From Catajapyx aquilonaris (taxonomy: Eukaryota), in the NCBI GenBank assembly GCA_000934665.2, contig JYFJ02000197.1, forward strand, positions 186,001-248,428: a stretch of DNA of 62,428 nucleotides, given 5' to 3'. Below are positions 50,226-62,428 of this stretch, piece after piece. The translations under genes were made by a program, and so were the position numbers. Under the pieces are notes generated by a model. The model had not been told where the DNA came from and searched no databases. It saw only the letters and a program-made list of their open reading frames with translations. Positions within the stretch are counted from its first letter, which is position 1, and each line of letters opens with the position of its first letter.

Positions 50226-51968
50226 ATGGGCTCCTTACCGCTGGTGCCGCTGGTGACACTGCTGGTGGCGTGGCTGCCATGCTGGTGTGTCGCCAACAAG
50301 GGCAGCCGCTGCGAAGAGATCAACATCCCGATGTGCCGAGGAATAGGGTACAACCTGACCTCGATGCCGAACCAGTTCAACCACGACACGCAGGAGGAGG
50401 CAGGGCTGGAGGTGCACCAGTTCTGGCCCCTGGTCGAGATCCAGTGCTCCTCCGACCTCAAGTTCTTCTTGTGCTCCATGTACTCCCCGATCTGCATGGA
50501 GGACTACCACCAGCCGTTGCCGGCGTGTCGCAGCGTGTGCGAGCGCGCCAAAGCTGGTTGTGCCCCCCTGATGCGGCAGTACGGGTTCGCCTGGCCCGAG
50601 CGGATGAACTGCGACAAGCTGCCCCTGTTCGGTGACCCACACCATCTGTGCATGGACGCCAAGAACGGGTCCGGCCCTGAGGAGCCGGCGACCCCCTTCC
50701 CCAACGTGCGTCCTCCCTCCACGACGCGCCCTCGCACTGGCCAACAGGGGCCCAGGGCCAAGAACCACCCTTGCCTGTCCAGCCGAGAAGGGTGCCGCGA
50801 TATGAGGGACAAGCAGAGCTGCGAGTGCCGGTGCAACGGACCATTGATCAACATCACGCAGGACAGCCCCTGGTTCAACCGCAGCGTGACCGTCTACAAT
50901 CAGGACAACTGCGGTCTGCCTTGCGGCGGAACCTTCTTCGAGCCTGAAGAGAAGGAGTTTGCGCAGTGGTGGATCACTCTGTGGTCCAGCCTGTGCTGCA
51001 TCTCCACCCTGATGACTCTGACCACGTTCCTGATCGACATGGAGCGGTTCAAGTACCCCGAGAGGCCCATAGTGTTCCTGTCGGCCTGCTACTTCTTAGT
51101 GAGCGTGGGGTACTTGATCCGGGTGATCCTGGGTCCGGAGGCCATAGCCTGCGACGGAGGCATGATCCGGTACAACTACACGGGCCCCACCTTCTGCACA
51201 GCCGTCTTCCTCTTGATCTACTTCTTCGGCATGGCCAGCTCCATATGGTGGGTGATCCTGGCCCTCACCTGGTTCCTGGCAGCCGGGCTCAAGTGGGGCA
51301 ACGAAGCCATCGCCAGCTACTCCCAGTACTTCCACCTGGCCGCCTGGCTAATACCGACGGTCAAAGCCACGGCCGTCCTCCTGATGAGCTCCGTGGACGG
51401 CGACCCTGTGGCAGGCGTGTGCTACGTGGGCAACCAGAACGTGGACAACCTCCGCGGGTTCGTTCTGGCCCCCCTGGTGGTATACCTCCTTCTGGGCACC
51501 ACCTTCCTTCTGGCCGGATTCGTCAGCCTGTTCCGCATCCGCAATGTGATCAAGCAGCAGGGACGCACCAAGGCAGACAAGCTGGAGAAGCTGATGATCC
51601 GCATCGGCATCTTCAGCGTCCTGTACACGGTACCGGCGACCATAGTGATCGCGTGCTATTTCTACGAGTCGCAGCTACACGACGTGTGGATGAAGCCCCT
51701 GGTGTGCCACTGCGAGGAGAAGCAGAAGCCAGTCTACTCAATCCTCATGCTGAAGTACTTCATGGCTCTGGCCGTGGGCATAACCTCCGGTGTGTGGATA
51801 TGGTCGGGCAAGACTCTCGAGTCGTGGAAGCGCTTCTACCAGAGACTGACCGGGAAGCCCACCTACCAGCCCCAGCACAGGACGCTCAAGCAGGTGAACT
51901 ACCCGGCCACGAGTGTGCCTAGTCACGTGGGAAGCGCTCCCAAGCAGCCGCCCCTCAGTCACGTCTGA
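50226..51968 (+). CDS. fz2: Frizzled-2 (Fz5/8 subfamily) Wnt receptor, 580 aa, intronless CDS
   Basis: ATG at 50226 starts a signal peptide (MGSLPLVPLVTLLVAWLPCWCVA); the ORF-track start at 50178 is a TTG. The protein has a Frizzled CRD (CEEINIPMCRGIGYNLTSMPNQFNHDTQEEAGLEVHQFWPLV...), seven TM segments with RFKYPERPIVFLS, WFLAAGLKWGNEAI and KLEKLMIRIGIFSVLYTVP, the Dishevelled-binding KTxxxW motif (KTLESW) and a C-terminal PDZ ligand LSHV, as in Fz5 and Drosophila Fz2. Confidence 0.97.
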   Translation: MGSLPLVPLVTLLVAWLPCWCVANKGSRCEEINIPMCRGIGYNLTSMPNQFNHDTQEEAGLEVHQFWPLVEIQCSSDLKFFLCSMYSPICMEDYHQPLPACRSVCERAKAGCAPLMRQYGFAWPERMNCDKLPLFGDPHHLCMDAKNGSGPEEPATPFPNVRPPSTTRPRTGQQGPRAKNHPCLSSREGCRDMRDKQSCECRCNGPLINITQDSPWFNRSVTVYNQDNCGLPCGGTFFEPEEKEFAQWWITLWSSLCCISTLMTLTTFLIDMERFKYPERPIVFLSACYFLVSVGYLIRVILGPEAIACDGGMIRYNYTGPTFCTAVFLLIYFFGMASSIWWVILALTWFLAAGLKWGNEAIASYSQYFHLAAWLIPTVKATAVLLMSSVDGDPVAGVCYVGNQNVDNLRGFVLAPLVVYLLLGTTFLLAGFVSLFRIRNVIKQQGRTKADKLEKLMIRIGIFSVLYTVPATIVIACYFYESQLHDVWMKPLVCHCEEKQKPVYSILMLKYFMALAVGITSGVWIWSGKTLESWKRFYQRLTGKPTYQPQHRTLKQVNYPATSVPSHVGSAPKQPPLSHV

Positions 51969-52118
51969 CAGAGTGAGGACCCCCAGTTGCAAAGCGTGCC
52001 CACTCCCCTCCTAGGGGCAGCAGGCTCAGGGGCCACCCCGGGGCATGGGAAAGGGATGGGCAGCGCCTTTAGCAACGTGGAGGGTACACCCACTCTTAAT
52101 AACTATGGCCAGTTCTAG
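51969..52118 (+). other. fz2: Candidate stop-codon readthrough extension of fz2 (49 aa) overlapping a long stem-loop
   Basis: Stop context is TGA-CAG. The frame stays open to TAG at 52116-52118 (QSEDPQLQSVPTPLLGAAGSGATPGHGKGMGSAFSNVEGTPTLNNYGQF). Positions 51970-52013 pair with 52046-52096. Confidence 0.6.
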
Positions 52119-52542
52119 CTAGATATCTAACTAGCAGTGCTTGCTGATGCGATTGCCCATCGCAGATATGTATACATACATATACTTGTGGTCCCTCTCT
52201 GTCTGCTGACACATTGCTCTGGAGATTTGCTCTGGTCAGAATTATGTATACGATACGGTCGTGTGGTTTTGTGCGGGAAAAAATTGTTTGTTATTGCGTA
52301 CAGTGGAACTCGATTCATTCAAAATGGAAATATTTCGTACCGAGAATTTGGCACCTATTCAGCTACTGCGTGTGGAGAGTCCTAATGCTACAACTTACAT
52401 GTCATTTCCAGTAAGATTGCGGCTTTAGAAATTCTTGCGAAAATTAATAATTAATTAATCGGACTTGTCATGTAGATCTGCTAGTCATAAATTAATGAGG
52501 TAACTCTCCACGAGGGCAGCAGGCATAGGGACTGCAGACAAC

Positions 52543-52548
52543 AATAAA
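52543..52548 (+). promoter_or_regulatory. Candidate polyadenylation signal for fz2
   Basis: First AATAAA I noticed downstream of the CDS, with a U-rich tract near 52618-52630. The real 3' UTR may be longer. Confidence 0.3.
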
Positions 52549-55500
52549 AGATACTCAGAGGACTTCAAGCATACATATACACACATCCTCCCCATCTGTA
52601 CAGTACACATAAAAAATGTTTTCTTTTTTTGTAATTTTGATACCAGCTTTCGATGGAGCTATGATACGTACTCGGTGTTATATACATTGTTGGACATTTT
52701 TTATGCGTCAAATTCTTCGATGTGTCCTTCCCCAAGTCATTTCAGTCCATCTATTTGGTCAAGACTGACTGTGTTGTTAATTCGTTGTTCCTAATTTCGT
52801 CAGATTTTTTTTTAAACTCCTATTTCGCCAACTGTGTGTTCCCGTCATGTGGTGCAAAGATGTGAGTGCGGATTCGAAAAGATGATGGAATCGCAAGAAA
52901 TGTTTAACATAACTAATTGAACGAACGCATCTTCTGGAATCAGCAAAAAAAACGTTTGCAAACGTTTTTCGTGTGGGAAAATATGTGCCATATTTCGTAG
53001 CTTCTCTAACTGTATAATAATAATACATTAAGTTATTACAGACATATCCGTTATGCAATCACTTTACACAAATGCATATCAAATCTGAAAAATTTTGTTA
53101 CATAATTATATGATCAGTGAATCGTTTTCAGTTGATCAGCAAATCATTGTTATTGTCTGTTTGCCAACGGTCGATATACGTAAAATTGGTGATAGAGTAA
53201 TAATTCTACGTAACTTACAGCCCATGAGAGTTGACTTAAGGTCTCGTTACATTGAGTGGAAGTAACCAACTTTCTCTGCATAATAAGCGTGAAAGACGTG
53301 CAGATGGTCCCATGTGCATTAATTACCCTCATTTACGTAATTAGCTGATGTATTCCACGAATCTTGGTTGCATGGTACGTTTCCTCTTTAAAATGTATCT
53401 ACCTGCTCATTAACGCCACTCAAATTTTTTTGCCCAAATATTCACATTTTGCTCGGTTTCTGTCCACGACTGTACGGGTTATCAGAAAAACGAATCAGCC
53501 CCAAGCGAAATAACCATTTCCGACTACCAGCCAAGCCGTGTTAGTAAAGCACGTAATTATCGGTCTTACGTTCCTGAGGTGTTGCGCTAGAAAACATAAT
53601 GCGCCCTTTATCGATTATTGAAATTCACTTACCAACTTTACCCAATTCCTACACATTTTTGCTCTTACCTGCCCAAATATTTTTTCACCAAAAAAAAATT
53701 ATTGATCTAATTAAGAATCTGGCCAAACATTCACGAACCAAACCGGAAAAATTGGGGAGGAAAAATATTATACATAACGGAGGTGGTCCTTTGATAACGA
53801 AATAGCCCGCCCCTCTTCCTTTCTGAATCATAAATTCCCTTCACTTCCAAAAGCACGCGATCAACAGAGCAGATTGAGCTACCTCCCACCCCCACCTCCC
53901 TGCTCCTCCCCCCTTAAATCAATATCGGCATGTGCGCTCCCATACCCACTCACTCAACCCAACATGACATATTTGGTCTCGGCAACAATCGTAAACAAAA
54001 TAAAATATACATGAGTACCAGTATGGGGGGTGGCGAGAGGTGGGGTGGGTGGGTGGGTGGAAAGATACGGATTTGCGATTCGCGTTAATTGCGGCACCTA
54101 TAAAATGGCTGGCCAGACCCCTTTTTACGATGCGACACGTTTATGACCACGCGAGTCACTGAAAATGGTGGCCCATGTGAAGATTTCCATCGTTGTTCCC
54201 AGCTGGTGGTATCGATTAGTTGATATCCAATTGTTGTGTAGAAACACGATTCCTCACCTGGTTGGTCCGGTGGCTTACCATTGCAAAATGGGGCAGTTCT
54301 TTGGCAGATGACCCACCAAATGTTACAGTCGTTGTCCCCAATTCGACCCTCCCTTTTGCCCTATACGGTGCTGATTAAACCCAGTCTGTCCCCTCCTAGT
54401 CTTCCAAAAGGGTGGACAGTTGAATGCACTCGGTATGGTCCGCACGCCCCACTACATCTCAATACCCCCCATGGCTATCCTGGAAACAAAGGGTTTGGTC
54501 GGATTGTCAACCCTGTGCGACAGGGGGACAGGGGGCGGTGGAAGGGGGAGTCAAAAGGCCATTCATTCCAGTTTTCCAAGAGAGGGGGGGGCGGGGGGCG
54601 GAGAGAGAGATGGAAGAAGGGGTTGAATTGTTGTCAAAGTGTAACAAGCATGGGAAAAGTGGGTCCCAAAATAATTATTTTTGCCTGGGTGTTTGAGTCC
54701 GTTGATCCTCAGGATCTGGGCTAAATTGAGCAAAATGTGATTTCAACAAGCTTTTCGTTGCCTAATGACTATTGACACTCCAAAATTGAGCATAAGAGTT
54801 AGCACACAGCACCTAAATTTTTCGTACAATTTTGTGTCTGGGTAACAGTTATTCGAAAGTAAATTGCGCAACATGTTCCCCCCTTCTTTTCACCCCGTTT
54901 TTAACGTGCTCCACTCGAGGGAATGAGAAACCCAGCCGGACTCTCCAAGTCCCACTCATCCTGTGACACATGACAAGCAGATGCTGTAGAACCAGTAGGT
55001 GGTAAATTGCAAACCTGAAACTCTCAGTAGAAAAAAAAAGATACAGACCTGTGTCCACAGTGCGTAAAGTAGGGGGAAGGGGACATACTTTTTATGTGTA
55101 TCCAACAGCCTCTCCGATTCGCATCTCGTTTCGGAGACAATTATCCAGTTGATTCAGTGGAAGAGGGGCTGATGTAATCTGGTAGGGGTCGAAAATGCAT
55201 ATAAAGAGTGGAAATCGATAGGGATGAAGAGGATGGGGGCAAGCTTTCAAACTGAGAATTTTTTTAAAAAAAGTAGTGTTCGCAACTTTTCATGATTAAG
55301 CTGTAGGTGTGTATCTGGTGGCTAATGATGTTGTGCTAAAAAGTATGGAGGCTAGCGCACATGGGATTTGATGTTGACATTTTGAGGACGAATCGATGCG
55401 GGTGTGTATATCCCCAGTCGTTAATTTCACCATGTGAATATTCGTGTAGTTTAAATATTGGTCTGTGGGCTGGTGGTCTGATTAAGGGTCATGGACTAAT

Positions 55501-58500
55501 TATCTGCCATTTTTTACTACCATAATTTTGTGTAGTAAGTTGGATACTTCCACCATGGGCTAAAGTGCTAGTCATCTTTTTTTAAATTATTGTTTTACCA
55601 GCTGCATCTAATTTATTTGCATCTGTCATTATATAAATTTGTTGCGTATAAATAATACCTGTTCATTTCCAGGCGTATAAAATAAGATGTATACGATGCG
55701 GTCTGTGTAAAAGTGAATAGTTCTAAAAATATATATCTAAAACATTTTAAAGCTTATTCTGTTCATTTTGACAGGGTATTTTCCAATCTATTGTACTTAA
55801 TGCTCGTGTTAACATATCATACTGTATTTCGCATAAAAATTTGTCATCCTTTGTAGACCATATTTCTTACAACAAACAGGGTAGTCTGGAAATGTTCTTT
55901 ATGTGAATAATCTCTGTTGTACATAAACGCCGAAAATAAGTCACTGCATTAAAAGTGTTCTTTATATCTAAAACATTAATTTCAATCCTTGCATTAATGT
56001 AGGTGTCACAAATGCATGAAACCTCGTCCCAGCATTGTTGTTGTCTAGAAGTCAGTTTCCTCTCTGCAGGCCTATTCTTTCCTCCCACATTTCGGGAGCG
56101 AACTGGAGTGCATCACGCCAGGCCACTGTTTGTTTGCCTGGATGGCAGTTTGACAAGACATTCACCGTCCTTCCTTCCTTTCAGGTTCTAGTGGCTAAAG
56201 CAAAACAAGGGAGCTTCTTCCATTAGCAGACCAAATTGTGTTTCATTGTCACACTTTTCCGAGTTCTTATTGCTGATATTTTATGGGAAAAACTGAATAT
56301 CATACTTCAATAACTGTTAACGACTTCTTCGGTAACAGTAAGCGACATTGGATTAAATTTTCAAAGCATATATTTGTCATTTTAGAATTATCTAGTAACA
56401 AAGAAAACGCTCTGGGGTGTTGTTAAGATTGCAATGGCAATGTAACAGAATGTACTGTGCCCATGAGGGCAATGATGATTTTTCTCAGCTAACTAACATG
56501 CCCTTCATAGATTTAAAAAAAATCAATTTGTTAATGACCAAAATAACCAGCCACATAAATAAGTGGAACATCTGGATATTTTCTGAGCAGCTAGCTCATT
56601 CCGCGGTTGCCTCAAGTCATTCTCTTCCTCTCTTCTTGGCCTTTGCTTTTCCTCAATACCGTTCATTCTGAATGAAGATCTGCAGATTACAAAGGCAGCT
56701 GTTTACATTCTGAGGCTCAATAAATATTAACAGGTAGACATTTAAGCCAACATCCGTGATAATGTTTCAAGATAGAACAACAATAAATACAGTTAGAAAA
56801 TCCTCACCTTGTAAATTAATATCTGGAGCTGTTTAACTGTTTCAGTTCAATCTGTAAATATATCCAAGCAGAGTATAAGCTTGAGGCATGAAACTGCTGT
56901 ACTGGAGGATTATTTTATGTCGCATTGCAGTGACCCGTGGGCCACGTGAAGACTTATCGTGCGAACCAGTATGCTGTAATGAATGCTGGTATTTTTAGAA
57001 GAAGGTGATTTTCCGCATACTTTACCTGCTGCAAGAACTGAGACTCTGATTTTCTGCTGCAGTGCTCGTAATGAGCTACCCGCTACCATGTCAAGTGCCT
57101 TTCTTTATTAAGCTGCTTCCACTTCCTGTCTACTAATGCTTAACATAAGGCAAAGGCATGAAATATGAAGCTACACTAATTTTGTGATAATGAATTGTAA
57201 TTAAAACCAAAAGGGTGAGTGTTTCTTTCTTGCAGTCGTCATTGTCATCCGATCCGAGGTGACCAGAAACCAGTCGAACCATTTGGCCTTTCTTAGCAGG
57301 CATGTGTTGACCTCTCCACTAAAAGGAAGCCCCGTGGAGTTGGTTCGTATTTCGTTTCCACGTTTTGCATCGCTCCTTCACCATACCAGAATGACAGGCA
57401 GAGAGGCTGGTGCCAGTATAGTCTGAGTAGAACAAAGGTTTTTTTTTTCTTCTTTTCGGCGAAATGCAGACGGTATATTGTGATTATCTTTGCAACTAAC
57501 TCGAGAAGATGTGAATAAGGACACGCGTGAACATTTCGCCTACATCGCGTTACATTTGAAACGTGTTGATGAAAATAGTGTTAGAAGAGTTGTGTGTATA
57601 CGATTTCAGTCATATCAAGGGCCTGAATATACAATCAGAGTCTACTGATGCAGACTTGAAGTCACCACGATTCCAAATGTTTACTGAACAGAGCTGGCAC
57701 ACCCTTGTAGGGCACTCCATCTGCATCTTATTTTATCGGTGTGATTCCGGTGTGATCTGACACAGGGTAATGGCAACATACACTGGTGCCACTTGGTTTT
57801 AAGGATGAATACGGTTTGTCCCTTGATTTCTACGATGTGGACTAGATGACATCTTTGAATTTTTGACAATCTCTTTTGGTAGCACTAGAACGGAAGAATG
57901 TCACAATGCCGGAAAATTTATAATGGTCACCGCCCAGTAGCATTCATCTTCCTATCAGCATTCGGCTAAATGACAAGATTTGAGGCCTGCATAAGATTAA
58001 TACATGACATATGATTGTGAATTACTATCATTCAAGAATATGGTTATCACCGGAAACCAAATTATTTCCAGGAATAATGCCAAAATACTGTGTAGAGCAA
58101 AAGACGTGCGGAAGCTGTACATTTCCGGCACGTAATTTAAATAAACCTCCAAACAAATTTTCATATTGTCAGCCTGGAAGTAGTTAATTAGACTAATGGA
58201 TACGTTTGAATTTATACATTCCTCTCATTCTCAAAATGTTTGTGGCTTTCAGAAGCCCTCTCTAAAAAAATGGGCTGTTTTGACCTGCTGTTGACAAACC
58301 TGTTATCAACGGGAAATGTTGATTTAAATTTTCCGCTTCTGTCTCTTAAGTTTAGTTAAGATAATACGGTTCAAATCCGCTCTGATAGAATCTTCAGCCT
58401 TTGTCTTGGTTCAAATGTGCGCGGCGGATAATGATGTCACCTTTCCATCTGGCAACCCGTGCACCATACCACCTGGCCACCCTGCTCTACATTTGATGAT

Positions 58501-59398
58501 TTGAAACATCTCCAACATGGCTGCGGACACGGGGTAACGAGAGGAATGGTAGGTGAACTTGTGATATAGGCAGCAGTTCATGTATTCATACCAGCACCAC
58601 TTGCAGGGAAGGAGAAACCAGTATGGCAGCTTGAAGTTCAGCACATGTTAGGGACCGAAGACCATTGTTGTCTCCATCTACACTTTCAAGTTGGTCTTCA
58701 GGTTACATCAAACTCTAGTAATTGGATACCTTGAATGTATTCTTGTGTAAGTTTACCTGGATATTGATGTCATAGATGGGAGACAACTAGTAGTAATGAA
58801 ATAAGCAGTATTACAGCTTTGCCCCATAGTTAGAACATCACTAGTGTGCAGCAGCACATCTAGGAATCATCAATATTGCCACGAATGTATTTTGTGTCCA
58901 ATGGCTTCACCTTTGTCTTTCCATGTCATCAGAAGAGTGTGTTCCTTTAAGTCACACTGAAGTGTTTCATTGGACATAACATTTTTGAAAAAAAGGGATG
59001 TAAGAAACCTGAGAGTGTACAAGTTACACTCCACTTTGTTGCACATTGGAATTGCAACATTTTAGGTGGGAAGCCCCTTTTCAATGCCTTTTCAACAATG
59101 AATTTTTTTCCCCCGTGGGACAGCAAATGCAAGTGGGAACTACAAAAATATGAACACCTCTAAAGTAATGACACCCCTGTAACCTAAGGCCATCTGAATA
59201 TCCCCATAGGTCCATCAGTGGGACCAGATTCTGCTGGGGTCAGGCCATAATTTAGTCACAGTCAGTCAGGTACACCAGAGAGGATAGTTTGCCCATTCAA
59301 CTAGCACCTGGCACCCCACAGGAACACACCTGCCATGATAGCCTCACAACTCCCATCTTCCTAGGTTACCCTGTCTCCTTCTGGGCTGGTGGTGTGTG

Positions 59399-59480
59399 CA
59401 AGGCCGGATTATCCACGGTCCCACGGAGCAATGGAGCACTTGCTCCAGGGTCCTAGCTACGTCCAAGGGGGCCCTCGCTC
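59399..59480 (+). mobile_element. Possible left end of a hAT-type MITE
   Basis: CAAGGCCGGATT...CCAGGGTCC...GGGGGCCC resembles CAGGGCCGGATT-type hAT termini. No matching right end was found. Confidence 0.3.
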
Positions 59481-59672
59481 ATGAAGAAAATGGCAACACA
59501 TGCAACAGAGCCAGGTGCTTATTGGGAAAAATCGAAATCCTGAATACCGATTTTATGACTACCTTGTGGTTTACAGTGCTGTAATGCACATATTGATATT
59601 GTTATTGTAAAGTCATGCGTCACTGTTGATGTTAAAGTGTATTGATTATTCTGGTTGAGTATGGTAACGTGG

Positions 59673-60815
59673 TGTAACCAGGGGTCTTTCGTTGTTTGTT
59701 TTACTTTCCTTGGTTATCGTTGCTCAGACCCCTGTGTTGCCCCACGGTACTGTAAACGAACCGAGGTGTAAATAAAGCTATCGGTGCCTCGGTAAGGGCA
59801 GTCAGTGACTAGCAGTCCAGGAGGAAGGTTCTCTGAAAAGGGAGCTCTCCCCTGCGACTAGTGGGCTCACTGATCCACTTGCCACTCCGTAGTGAAAAAT
59901 AACATTCTTGTGTTTTATTTCATACAGAGTACGGCATAAATAGTAAACTGACCAGGGGTCATAGTTGGGTAGGCGCCACCCAAGTATACTCCCGGCAGGA
60001 GGAACGGATACCTGGGCCAGCAGGCTCGCGCCGCCTGGGTCATCCAATCCGACTATTTATTCCGCTTAGGCAATCCCATACAACCTCCGTTAATAATACT
60101 TACAAGCATCATACTTGGGCCAGCAGGCCGCGCCGCCTGAGTATACGTAAGTAAGGTAAAGGGAATGATGTCTGGGCCAGCAGGCTAGCGCCGCCCGGGT
60201 TATCGGACCCAATTATTTCGGAAGTGCTTCCTCCTCACGATTTAAGAATCGCCGGGAGCCGCCCGGACCAGGGCGGAGTAGGTGCCTATCAGTCAACACC
60301 TTGTGTACCTACTCCTGTTACCTTTGTGATCGCCGGAATGTAGAACCTGACGTCACAGTGCTGGAAATATTCGACGCGACAATTGCAGGACAAAACCTGG
60401 ACAAAACTCTCAATGTGTATGTTGCAGTCAATCTCGTCAAGTTGATGTCTACCCGACTGTATCTGTGTGATCGTTTTGACACATTTGAGCAGCAAGCACT
60501 TGTTGGCATTGACCCTTCATGGCCCCTGGTGTTGCCTCTATTGGTCACTGCCAGCCCATGGACACTTCTATCCCAGCGCAATAGAAAAGGCCGATCCGTT
60601 ATTCCTTCCCGCAGCGGCGCTAGTAAAACAATGGAATCTCGCTGTGCGTGTCGTTCATTCGCCATAACAACTATAGCGACGATAGCGACCCTCCTCCCGA
60701 TTACTAGGTTTATCAGCGACCCCCCTCCCGATTACTACCGATCACGGTCTTAGCCGCTACCGATAGCGTATACCAAGATGGCCGCAATATGGAGATGTTC
60801 ACGATCCAGGTCACA
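59673..60815. mobile_element. Solo-LTR-like element (1143 bp)
   Basis: TG...CA ends form imperfect inverted termini (TGTAACCAGG vs reverse complement TGTGACCTGG, 8/10). Flanks acgtgg/tcatgg match 4/6, a possible decayed TSD. AATAAA occurs on both strands (59771 +, 59914-59919 -). Internal tandem duplications are present (23-bp unit at 60684-60706 and 60715-60737). No coding capacity or PBS seen. Confidence 0.5.
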
Positions 60816-61672
60816 TCATGGCCACCTCCAGTCAGCGCCACGGCGGGAATGAGTAACGGAACGCAAAATGGCGGCGAGTTTCCCGACCTCTCCTTCTAAG
60901 ACCGTGGTCACTGCACTGCTGAGTCTGACTGCTTGACTGGACTGGACTGTCTGCCTGCCCTGTACTCTCCTTTTATCCCCAGGTATGCAAGGCAGAACAG
61001 GACCCTGCTGTTCCAGAAAGTTGTCACTGGGAATGGTTCCTTCCTGCCTCCATAGTCTTTTCAGCTCTACGTTGCTCTTGGTTTCTCCTACTTTTATCCT
61101 TTGAGCTGTACAATACAGCTCCATGCTCTTAGAACTCCAGTGATTCATGAAAGTGTCCCAAATTCATGGACGATTTAGGCACCATATGTGTCTTACGGTT
61201 ATCAAATTTTGGCACTATCCTTCGGAATTTTTTTCGCTAAGCACTACGAGGGTACACTTGGGTACAGTACTAATATTCAATATGGCGAATGACATAAGCT
61301 ATGTTCAATGAATTAATAATTAATGTATTTAGTGATTTAGTTGTGAATTCATTGCCAATCACTTGGTGAAACAGCAACTTCCAGTGAAAGGAAAAAATGC
61401 AAGCTGGTAACATTAAGAATTAATTTATCAGAATTTTTAAAATCATTGCAAGCAGAGCAGTCCAATGTGGGAAAAGGGTGCACCTGGATGACAATGTTCA
61501 ATGATTCCATATATGTCGCCTGAAATTCATTGCAACTATACAGGGACCTAAAAATGTTTTCCTTTCCACCCAATTTTTGGAGTTAATAATTACCAGTATC
61601 ACTGCCATAAAACCTGCCCAATTTGTGGCTTGACAAGCATGGCATCACTCCGTGCATGACATTACTGGTACA

Positions 61673-62400
61673 CAGTGTTGGGCAGGATCTAGATCAAATG
61701 ATCTAGATCCCAAACGCGTGATCTATGATCTGATCTAGGTACTTTTAAAACAGAGTATCTGTACTTGTATCTAGATACTTTTTTCATGGGATCTATGATC
61801 TAAAGATCTGAATTTTCCAGATCATGTCTTTTTTTCCACATATATGTTCCTGATGCTCAATTCATCTTCAAAAGATTATGTCAAGTCTAGGTAAAAAAGG
61901 GGACCGAAGATGGCAAGTCAATGTATTATGTCAAAATTTGAAAGTTTATATTATTTTTTAAATCACTGAATGTATTTAAAAAAAGAACTGTGTAGGCCTG
62001 GCCTATTAATAGGATAAGTTTGTGTTTTTCAATTATACAAGTTCTCGATGTAATTCATACTTGTCAAAATATAGACTAATTTATTACTAATATGTATGGG
62101 ACATGCTGGGAATTTTATGATTTATTGACTAGGCCTGTATGTTTTAACTATTTTTGTGTGTGTGAAATTATTCTGTGTACTTATTATAATATTTTCAATT
62201 GCAAGGTCATTATTTTTGACACATTCATCAATGGATCTTTTCTCAGTGTTTTCTCTTGCACTTTAGCAATATGCCCCTGGGGCGGGTGGCAGACAATATT
62301 CAAATTCCCTGTATCCCTCTTCACTTGAACTAAACTGCTAATTGACGTAAATCACTTTAGGTTGTGTGATCTGAAATCTGATCTAGATCATTACCTAGAT
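61673..62400 (+). mobile_element. hAT-like non-autonomous element with GATCT/GTATCT subterminal repeats; right end interrupted
   Basis: Starts CAGTGTTGGGCAGGATCTAGATC. Dense GATCT(A/G) and GTATCT repeats at 61685-61825 and again at 62368-62400 surround an AT-rich core. Confidence 0.6.
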
Positions 62401-62428
62401 CAGTGCCGTATCCAGGGGGGGGGGGGGG
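62401..62428 (+). mobile_element. Left terminus of a second hAT-like MITE nested in the previous element, truncated by the window edge
   Basis: CAGTGCCGTATCCAGGGGGGG resembles the common CAGTGGCGTAGCCAGGGGG-type terminus. It is preceded by ACCTAGAT, similar to the NTCTAGAN target preference of some hAT elements. Confidence 0.5.

Follow-up and report, generated by a model that had tools for sequence, protein, structure and literature searches.

The stretch of Catajapyx aquilonaris DNA analysed here (62,428 nucleotides of contig JYFJ02000197.1, positions 186,001 to 248,428; hereafter the window, always at this full length) holds one recognisable gene, fz2, which encodes the Wnt receptor Frizzled-2 and whose UGA-C stop is followed in frame by a second open reading frame (ORF). 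An earlier note on this DNA, made from the letters alone, had proposed that this stop is read through and that the C-terminal signalling motif of the receptor is thereby exchanged. Comparison with other sequences makes it very probable that this is the orthologue of a conserved fz2 readthrough event already on record for Drosophila and Anopheles, here in a lineage that branches outside the winged insects sampled. The mechanism is not new; an already known 'ancient' readthrough gains an orthologue. As we picture it, most ribosomes would terminate at the UGA at 51966 and release a receptor of 580 amino acids (aa) ending in the PDZ ligand S-H-V, and a minority would decode UGA-C via a near-cognate tRNA and run 49 codons on, yielding a 630-aa isoform in which S-H-V would be internal and the new C-terminus would read ...L-N-N-Y-G-Q-F. 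Both translation past the stop in this animal and its frequency are things that we infer.

The fz2 gene and its first stop codon

An uninterrupted ORF on the forward strand (50226-51968) encodes 580 aa with the C-terminus ...KQPPLSHV, and its 580 sense codons (50226..51965) form an intronless coding sequence (CDS) of a Frizzled-2 of the Fz5/8 type, as judged from the ORF itself, Pfam matches and colinear orthologues. Residues 29-133 match the Fz cysteine-rich domain (Pfam PF01392, E 1.9e-33) and residues 237-540 match the Frizzled seven-transmembrane region (Pfam PF01534, E 1.1e-132). The juxtamembrane KTxxxW motif is present as KTLESW (residues 529-534; 51810..51827, forward strand) and holds the KTLES site, linked to Fz2 cleavage in Drosophila, that the earlier note had read in this gene. 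The canonical C-terminus, S-H-V (residues 578-580; 51957..51965, forward strand), has the class I PDZ-ligand form S/T-x-V, per sequence and alignment. With an Fz domain, seven transmembrane segments, KTxxxW and S/T-x-V, the window gene is an Fz2, or Fz5/8-type, Wnt receptor.

The top protein matches are insect proteins named frizzled-2 or frizzled-5 (identity 61-76%); the protein searches yielded no near relative, and the window's own protein is absent from the collection searched. The window protein aligns colinearly over its whole length, M1 to V580, with 14 orthologues (identity 64-72%). In a maximum-likelihood tree of the window and 29 proteins picked from about 190 collected, mostly named representatives (30 rows), the window's Fz2 is sister to all sampled winged insects, with SH-aLRT (Shimodaira-Hasegawa-like approximate likelihood ratio test) support of 100 for the two together and of 99 for the insects by themselves. 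The millipede, the onychophoran and the other phyla fall elsewhere in the tree. This sample is without crustacean, entognathan or wingless-insect sequences and without other Frizzled paralogues, and the tree only bounds the position of the window. Judged from the best matches and this grouping, the window's gene is orthologous to insect Fz2.

Within the same alignment of 15 sequences, P576, S578 and V580 are invariant and the ...PLSHV end is nearly so; the C-terminus is SHV in 102 of 124 proteins collected. Hence the annotated stop is ancestral, and the possibility of a recent nonsense mutation at this position was rejected, ...PLSHV being the ancestral C-terminus. The stop itself is TGA (51966-51968) with a C directly 3' of it (51969), as the earlier note had it, and this UGA-C (51966..51969, forward strand) is the proposed leaky stop. 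UGA-C is a leaky stop context.

The tail of the receptor is not built alike in every insect. Some insect Fz2 sequences (contig position L001:2510-2552 and proteins P0007 and P0008) break after ...KQQYQV and continue with unrelated residues, which suggests an intron within the cytoplasmic tail in those lineages, as opposed to the intronless gene of the window.

The second open reading frame and its terminal motif

Frame 0 stays open past the first stop for 49 sense codons (51969..52115, forward strand), a readthrough extension with a Gly/Ala/Ser/Pro-rich interior, and closes at a second stop, TAG (52116-52118), which is followed by a C and, after three codons, by an in-frame TAA (52128-52130; the whole 52116..52130, forward strand). 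Counting one residue at the first stop, the readthrough product is 630 aa long and ends in YGQF; the open frame, the length and the ending are those the earlier note had given. The extension has no Pfam family. Its peptide retrieved three matches among 1.84 billion representatives, all of them long, repetitive, low-complexity proteins and none a Frizzled, and a word-indexed search with residues 531-630 (tail plus extension) returned 139 candidates with none at E<=0.01.

The DNA of relatives came from metagenome contigs (37 loci), in 35 of which the frame was walked from the end of the match; L036 and L037, both weak partial matches, were omitted from the walk, and two loci ran off the contig. 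The ...PLSHV tail was found in four loci, namely L002, L006, L024 and L033. L006 is ant-like (CDS 97.8% identical to an attine-ant Fz2) and L024 is cockroach- or termite-like (CDS 88.9% identical to Blattella Fz2). Both of these, the two insect-like contigs that reach the 3' end, have ...PLSHV followed by TGA-C, so this stop context is found in 3/3 DNAs of the insect-type clade, the window included. In each of the three, frame 0 is free of stops throughout the second ORF, which has 49 codons in the window, 32 in L006 and 52 in L024; the conserved UGA-C and the preserved frame that the earlier note had named as checks on its proposal are thus both seen. The two non-arthropod-like loci, L002 and L033, have TGA-G and second ORFs of 32 and 1 codons without the motif described below, and the collected proteins nearest L002 group with a mollusc, outside arthropods.

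Directly before the second stop, the window reads LNNYGQF (52095..52115, forward strand), L006 reads LSNYGPI and L024 reads LSNYGPV. All three sites fit a strict motif, L-[S/N]-N-Y-G-[P/Q]-[I/V/F], abutting the second stop, and the strict motif plus stop occurs at these three DNA sites only among 214,921 bases (429,690 six-frame codon positions). Two proteins derived from Logan, P0141 and its cluster mate P0223, also appear to run through the stop: they have W at the stop position, which we attribute to a gene caller that translated TGA as W, and continue for 45 further residues to the end LSDYGPI, with one residue different between them within the extension. Both fall inside Diptera in the tree. 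A wider form of the motif, L[SN][ND]YG[PQ][IVF], accordingly stands at the end of the extension in the window, L006, L024, P0141 and P0223. A second block, R-x-V-x-V-V-V-x-L-x-G, is common to L024 and P0141, whose CDS affinities are with Blattodea and Diptera, respectively.

Within the motif, the codons vary synonymously: Gly is GGC, GGG or GGT, Tyr is TAT, TAC or TAT, Leu is CTT, CTC or CTT, and Pro is CCC or CCA. Between L006 and L024, the seven codons show five synonymous differences, one identical codon and one amino-acid change. By sequence, this pattern fits a translated and selected peptide in frame with the receptor and no conserved nucleic-acid element. The coding-type signature is clear for these last 7 codons and for the block common to L024 and P0141; the rest of the window's extension is without an alignable relative. 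The synonymous bias that the earlier note had named as a further check is thus seen in the terminal codons; the preceding 42 are unalignable. Since the motif is the sole part kept in all lineages, it is likely the payload of the extension, with the Gly/Ala/Ser/Pro-rich stretch as a linker.

We would like to note several further observations on the DNAs examined. In L006 (4541-4721), the second stop is TAG-C, and 59 more open in-frame codons follow it with a GC of 0.69; this third open stretch resembles the 'double readthrough' of Anopheles fz2 discussed below. A search of genome contigs found one locus, L038, a non-insect-like Frizzled with an intron and with its 3' end out of reach. It lies on a 60-kb contig filed under a metagenome-assembled genome of Metamycoplasmataceae, and with an intron-bearing animal Frizzled and microsatellites on it, the contig is evidently host DNA binned with a bacterium. 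A search of viral contigs gave no match. Within the window, no Pfam family was found in the 14 other stop-to-stop ORFs of >=130 aa that were scanned (window 1-50000 and 52500-62428), and fz2 apparently has no neighbour in some 60 kb of AT-rich DNA, whose G+C downstream of the gene is 0.27-0.45.

Catalogued readthrough of fz2 and rival explanations

Readthrough of fz2 has been described before for this gene, in the form of list entries in Drosophila and Anopheles. Supplementary Data S1 of Jungreis et al. 2016 (PMC5100048) gives the D. melanogaster transcript fz2-RB (FBtr0075028) a readthrough region of 112 codons after TGA-C, and the A. gambiae transcript AGAP010442-RA one of 45 codons after TGA-C, classed as 'Double' with a third ORF of 21 codons and placed on the high-confidence 'Preliminary' list. 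As fz2-RB has an entry in the 'Jungreis 2011 Transcript' column of that table, it was already on the 2011 list (PMC5100048). The pair is marked stop-orthologous and 'Ancient' (PMC5100048), stop orthology being judged by agreement of the ultimate or penultimate residue, and per the methods of that work, its authors discarded candidates for which splicing, initiation further downstream, the opposite strand or selenocysteine gave a better explanation (PMC5100048). By that same measure the first stop of the window is orthologous, with ...LSHV in the window, ...ASHV in D. melanogaster (P0192) and ...LSHV in the A. gambiae cluster (P0206). FlyBase also annotates the fly isoform, as fz2-PF with a 112-aa extension after UGA (PMC4528330, supplementary file 6). 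The same file lists fz-PC with a 31-aa extension after UAG, so that both Drosophila Wingless receptors are listed with leaky stops (PMC4528330).

Beyond these lists, text searches of the literature library that was open to search, judged by title and abstract, found no main-text discussion of fz2 readthrough, and the main text of a 2026 preprint on Drosophila readthrough makes no mention of fz2, frizzled, PDZ or Wnt (PMC13278127). The 807-aa D. melanogaster fz2-PF was not among the best 120 of 551 matches, and the 15 members listed for the 86-member Drosophila cluster do not include it either.

The window thus resembles the fly and mosquito cases in gene, in a stop placed after ...SHV, in TGA-C and in a second ORF of tens of codons. 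It differs in the length of the extension (49 codons; the fly has 112, and the mosquito has 45 and then a third ORF of 21 codons), in a third ORF of only 3 codons, and in coming from an organism outside all sampled pterygotes. The extension of the dipteran P0141, with 45 residues after W, has the length listed for Anopheles. What is new is the reach of the readthrough event far beyond Diptera, to ant-like and cockroach- or termite-like contigs and to the earlier-branching lineage of the window, together with a conserved tyrosine motif at the very end of the extension and a linker free to vary in length and sequence. Abundant readthrough has been inferred to arise in Pancrustacea after the split from Myriapoda (PMC5100048), with which the placement of the window is compatible, and TGA with a 3' C is enriched at readthrough stops (PMC5100048).

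Several points weigh against this interpretation. The comparison comprises only two other DNAs and two protein calls, and the homology of the window tail to the Drosophila and Anopheles tails would follow from stop orthology and the dipteran P0141 only. The 42 codons that precede the motif in the window align to no other lineage, so that in this lineage constraint is apparent for the last 7 codons only. An open frame of this size is also readily obtained by chance, as the earlier note had cautioned: when the 147 nt were shuffled 5000 times with dinucleotides preserved, 16.8% of the shuffles had no in-frame stop. The third-position G+C content (GC3) of the extension, 0.67, falls well short of the 0.87 in the CDS. 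A hairpin predicted directly after the stop is not significant (-66.6 kcal/mol, z -1.62, equalled by 12/200 shuffles).

As to base composition, the 147 nt of the extension are 62% G+C, and in 150-nt windows the G+C runs at 0.64-0.68 to about 52100 and at 0.43-0.47 just beyond. The CDS-like GC richness that the earlier note had seen is therefore borne out in overall level and in its drop, but not by codon position, the G+C of the extension not being concentrated at third positions, unlike that of the CDS. The other two frames of the same 147 nt contain 1 and 4 stops, and the shuffle probabilities of the second ORF being open are 0.17 in the window, 0.40 in L006 and 0.086 in L024. Taken alone, then, the open frame is unremarkable and weak evidence; what exceeds chance is the conservation between species, particularly of the terminal motif. 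An ORF open by chance was rejected as an explanation on the ground of this shared motif.

The main rival is alternative splicing that skips the stop, in which splicing from a donor in the part encoding the receptor's tail to an acceptor within the second ORF would fuse the motif to the receptor and leave the DNA between them untranslated. We consider this improbable, if still the strongest competitor. It would sit well with the fact that conservation is demonstrable in the window's lineage for the last 7 codons only, and in another insect group the differing tails with which the clusters of P0158 and P0159 run on beyond SHV may be due to splicing or to unspliced reads. However, the intervening 42, 25 and 45 codons are open in frame 0 in the window, L006 and L024, respectively, which a spliced-out stretch need not be, and TGA-C is conserved. 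In addition, Anopheles candidates for which a predicted 3' splice site was the better fit were excluded from the catalogue, and AGAP010442 is on its 'Preliminary' list (PMC5100048).

The proteins P0158 and P0159 and their clusters (P0225-P0238) belong to one insect group, have the tail ...HHHVLKHPMSHV and do not end after SHV. There, SHV runs on into S (in two members, C or R), after which the tails vary, some being short and others 40-180 residues in length. The picture resembles that of an exon boundary, of unspliced reads or of a stop lost at this position, and the lineage could extend its receptor by another route.

Returning to the window, a second rival is that nothing past the stop is translated, the frame being open by chance in a GC-rich proximal 3' untranslated region and the heptapeptide reflecting a conserved RNA or DNA element. 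The shuffles agree with such a view, as do the extension's lack of the CDS bias in GC3 and the 5' flanking DNA of fz2, which is likewise moderately GC-rich. Against it, third codon positions vary in the conserved element and the amino acids are kept, and every copy of the motif lies in frame 0 with a stop directly after it, with no further strict occurrence among all the codon positions searched; we regard this alternative as very unlikely. Equally unlikely in our estimation is a separate small downstream ORF, translated from an internal ATG by reinitiation or leaky scanning, which would release the motif on a free peptide. Each extension does contain one Met codon (at 52059 in the window, and one each in L006 and L024), but their positions do not align, which makes a free downstream peptide unlikely, and the frame relative to the receptor is kept in 3/3 DNAs. 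Reinitiation after an ORF of 580 codons would be unexpected. Finally, that the UGA encodes selenocysteine is scarcely credible: the codon is UGA and conserved, but no SECIS (selenocysteine insertion sequence) matched at E<=1 in the 5.5 kb downstream, and the residue would fall in a poorly conserved linker without redox context. In the forward strand of 51500-57500, neither SECIS nor any other Rfam family was found at E<=1, and the single Rfam hit in that region was a sub-threshold iron-responsive element on the minus strand.

A possible exchange of C-terminal signals on a Wnt receptor

If readthrough of the window's fz2 does take place, its consequences for the receptor would lie at the two alternative C-termini. 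Class I PDZ ligands need a free carboxyl end. It follows from the sequence that S-H-V would be buried in the long form, as the earlier note had argued, and given that requirement, the internal S-H-V should be unable to work as a PDZ ligand. The new end is exactly the conserved part of the extension, and YGQF, YGPI and YGPV all fit the form Y-x-x-bulky hydrophobic at its C-terminus, which lends weight to the earlier note's suggestion of a YxxPhi sorting signal there. By Frizzled topology, this end would be cytosolic, and it may be under selection as a putative sorting or adaptor-binding signal.

Similar signals are known elsewhere, and we liken the fz2 end to the C-terminal G-Y-x-x-hydrophobic signals that sort the lysosomal membrane proteins LAMP-1, LAMP-2 and CD63, which share with it a tyrosine motif, a hydrophobic last residue and a place in a cytosolic tail. 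The residue before Tyr is Asn or Asp in fz2 and Gly in those proteins, the fz2 motif lies some 90 residues from the membrane and theirs about 10, and the signal in fz2 is putative. For the exchange itself, we take the readthrough isoform of AQP4, AQP4ex, to be a fair likeness, AQP4 being a multi-pass membrane protein with a PDZ-ligand C-terminus in which a UGA extension changes anchoring. The stop context of AQP4, UGA-CUAG, differs from that of fz2. The protein is unrelated to fz2, and its readthrough is experimentally proven, as opposed to the comparative evidence for fz2. AQP4 is named among four mammalian readthrough genes (PMC4132726). The abstract of the catalogue paper mentions 'readthrough control of peroxisomal targeting' (PMC5100048), and peroxisomal targeting signals of type 1 (PTS1) added by readthrough resemble the fz2 case in that the extension closes with a short signal and the linker before it is free to vary. 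The fz2 signal has the Y-x-x-hydrophobic form, not that of PTS1, and the protein is a plasma-membrane receptor.

In Drosophila, passages in PMC7944400 and PMC10560568 state that Fz2 trafficking requires dGRIP, a PDZ protein, and that nuclear import of Frizzled depends on the KTLES site. Set beside the window's sequence, this suggests that the long isoform would escape dGRIP and the nuclear import route; more generally, it would escape PDZ-dependent handling of the GRIP type and be trafficked differently.

A farther-reaching interpretation, which we hold only tentatively and consider doubtful as a whole, is that the readthrough is much older than the divergence of fly and mosquito and goes back at least to an ancestor that the window's lineage shared with winged insects, that selection keeps the terminal signal, that one intronless mRNA yields two receptors, and that the rate of readthrough sets Wnt responsiveness. 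The short form with SHV would then be handled by GRIP-type PDZ proteins, including KTLES cleavage and nuclear import, and the rarer long form would expose a tyrosine adaptor signal that would direct it to a different membrane domain or to degradation. What would be kept under this interpretation is the terminal N/D-Y-G-P/Q-hydrophobic-COOH, not the whole tail.

The proposal that readthrough swaps a PDZ ligand for a putative sorting signal on a Wnt receptor is, to judge from the sources cited above, a new one. Readthrough of fz2 has stood in candidate lists since 2011, and a list entry here becomes a sharp hypothesis that can be tested in Drosophila. The window also adds a single-gene data point on the early rise of individual readthrough events within Pancrustacea. 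Should the proposal hold, the trafficking of a Wnt receptor, its apical-basal placement or its synaptic nuclear-import route could be tuned by translation termination.

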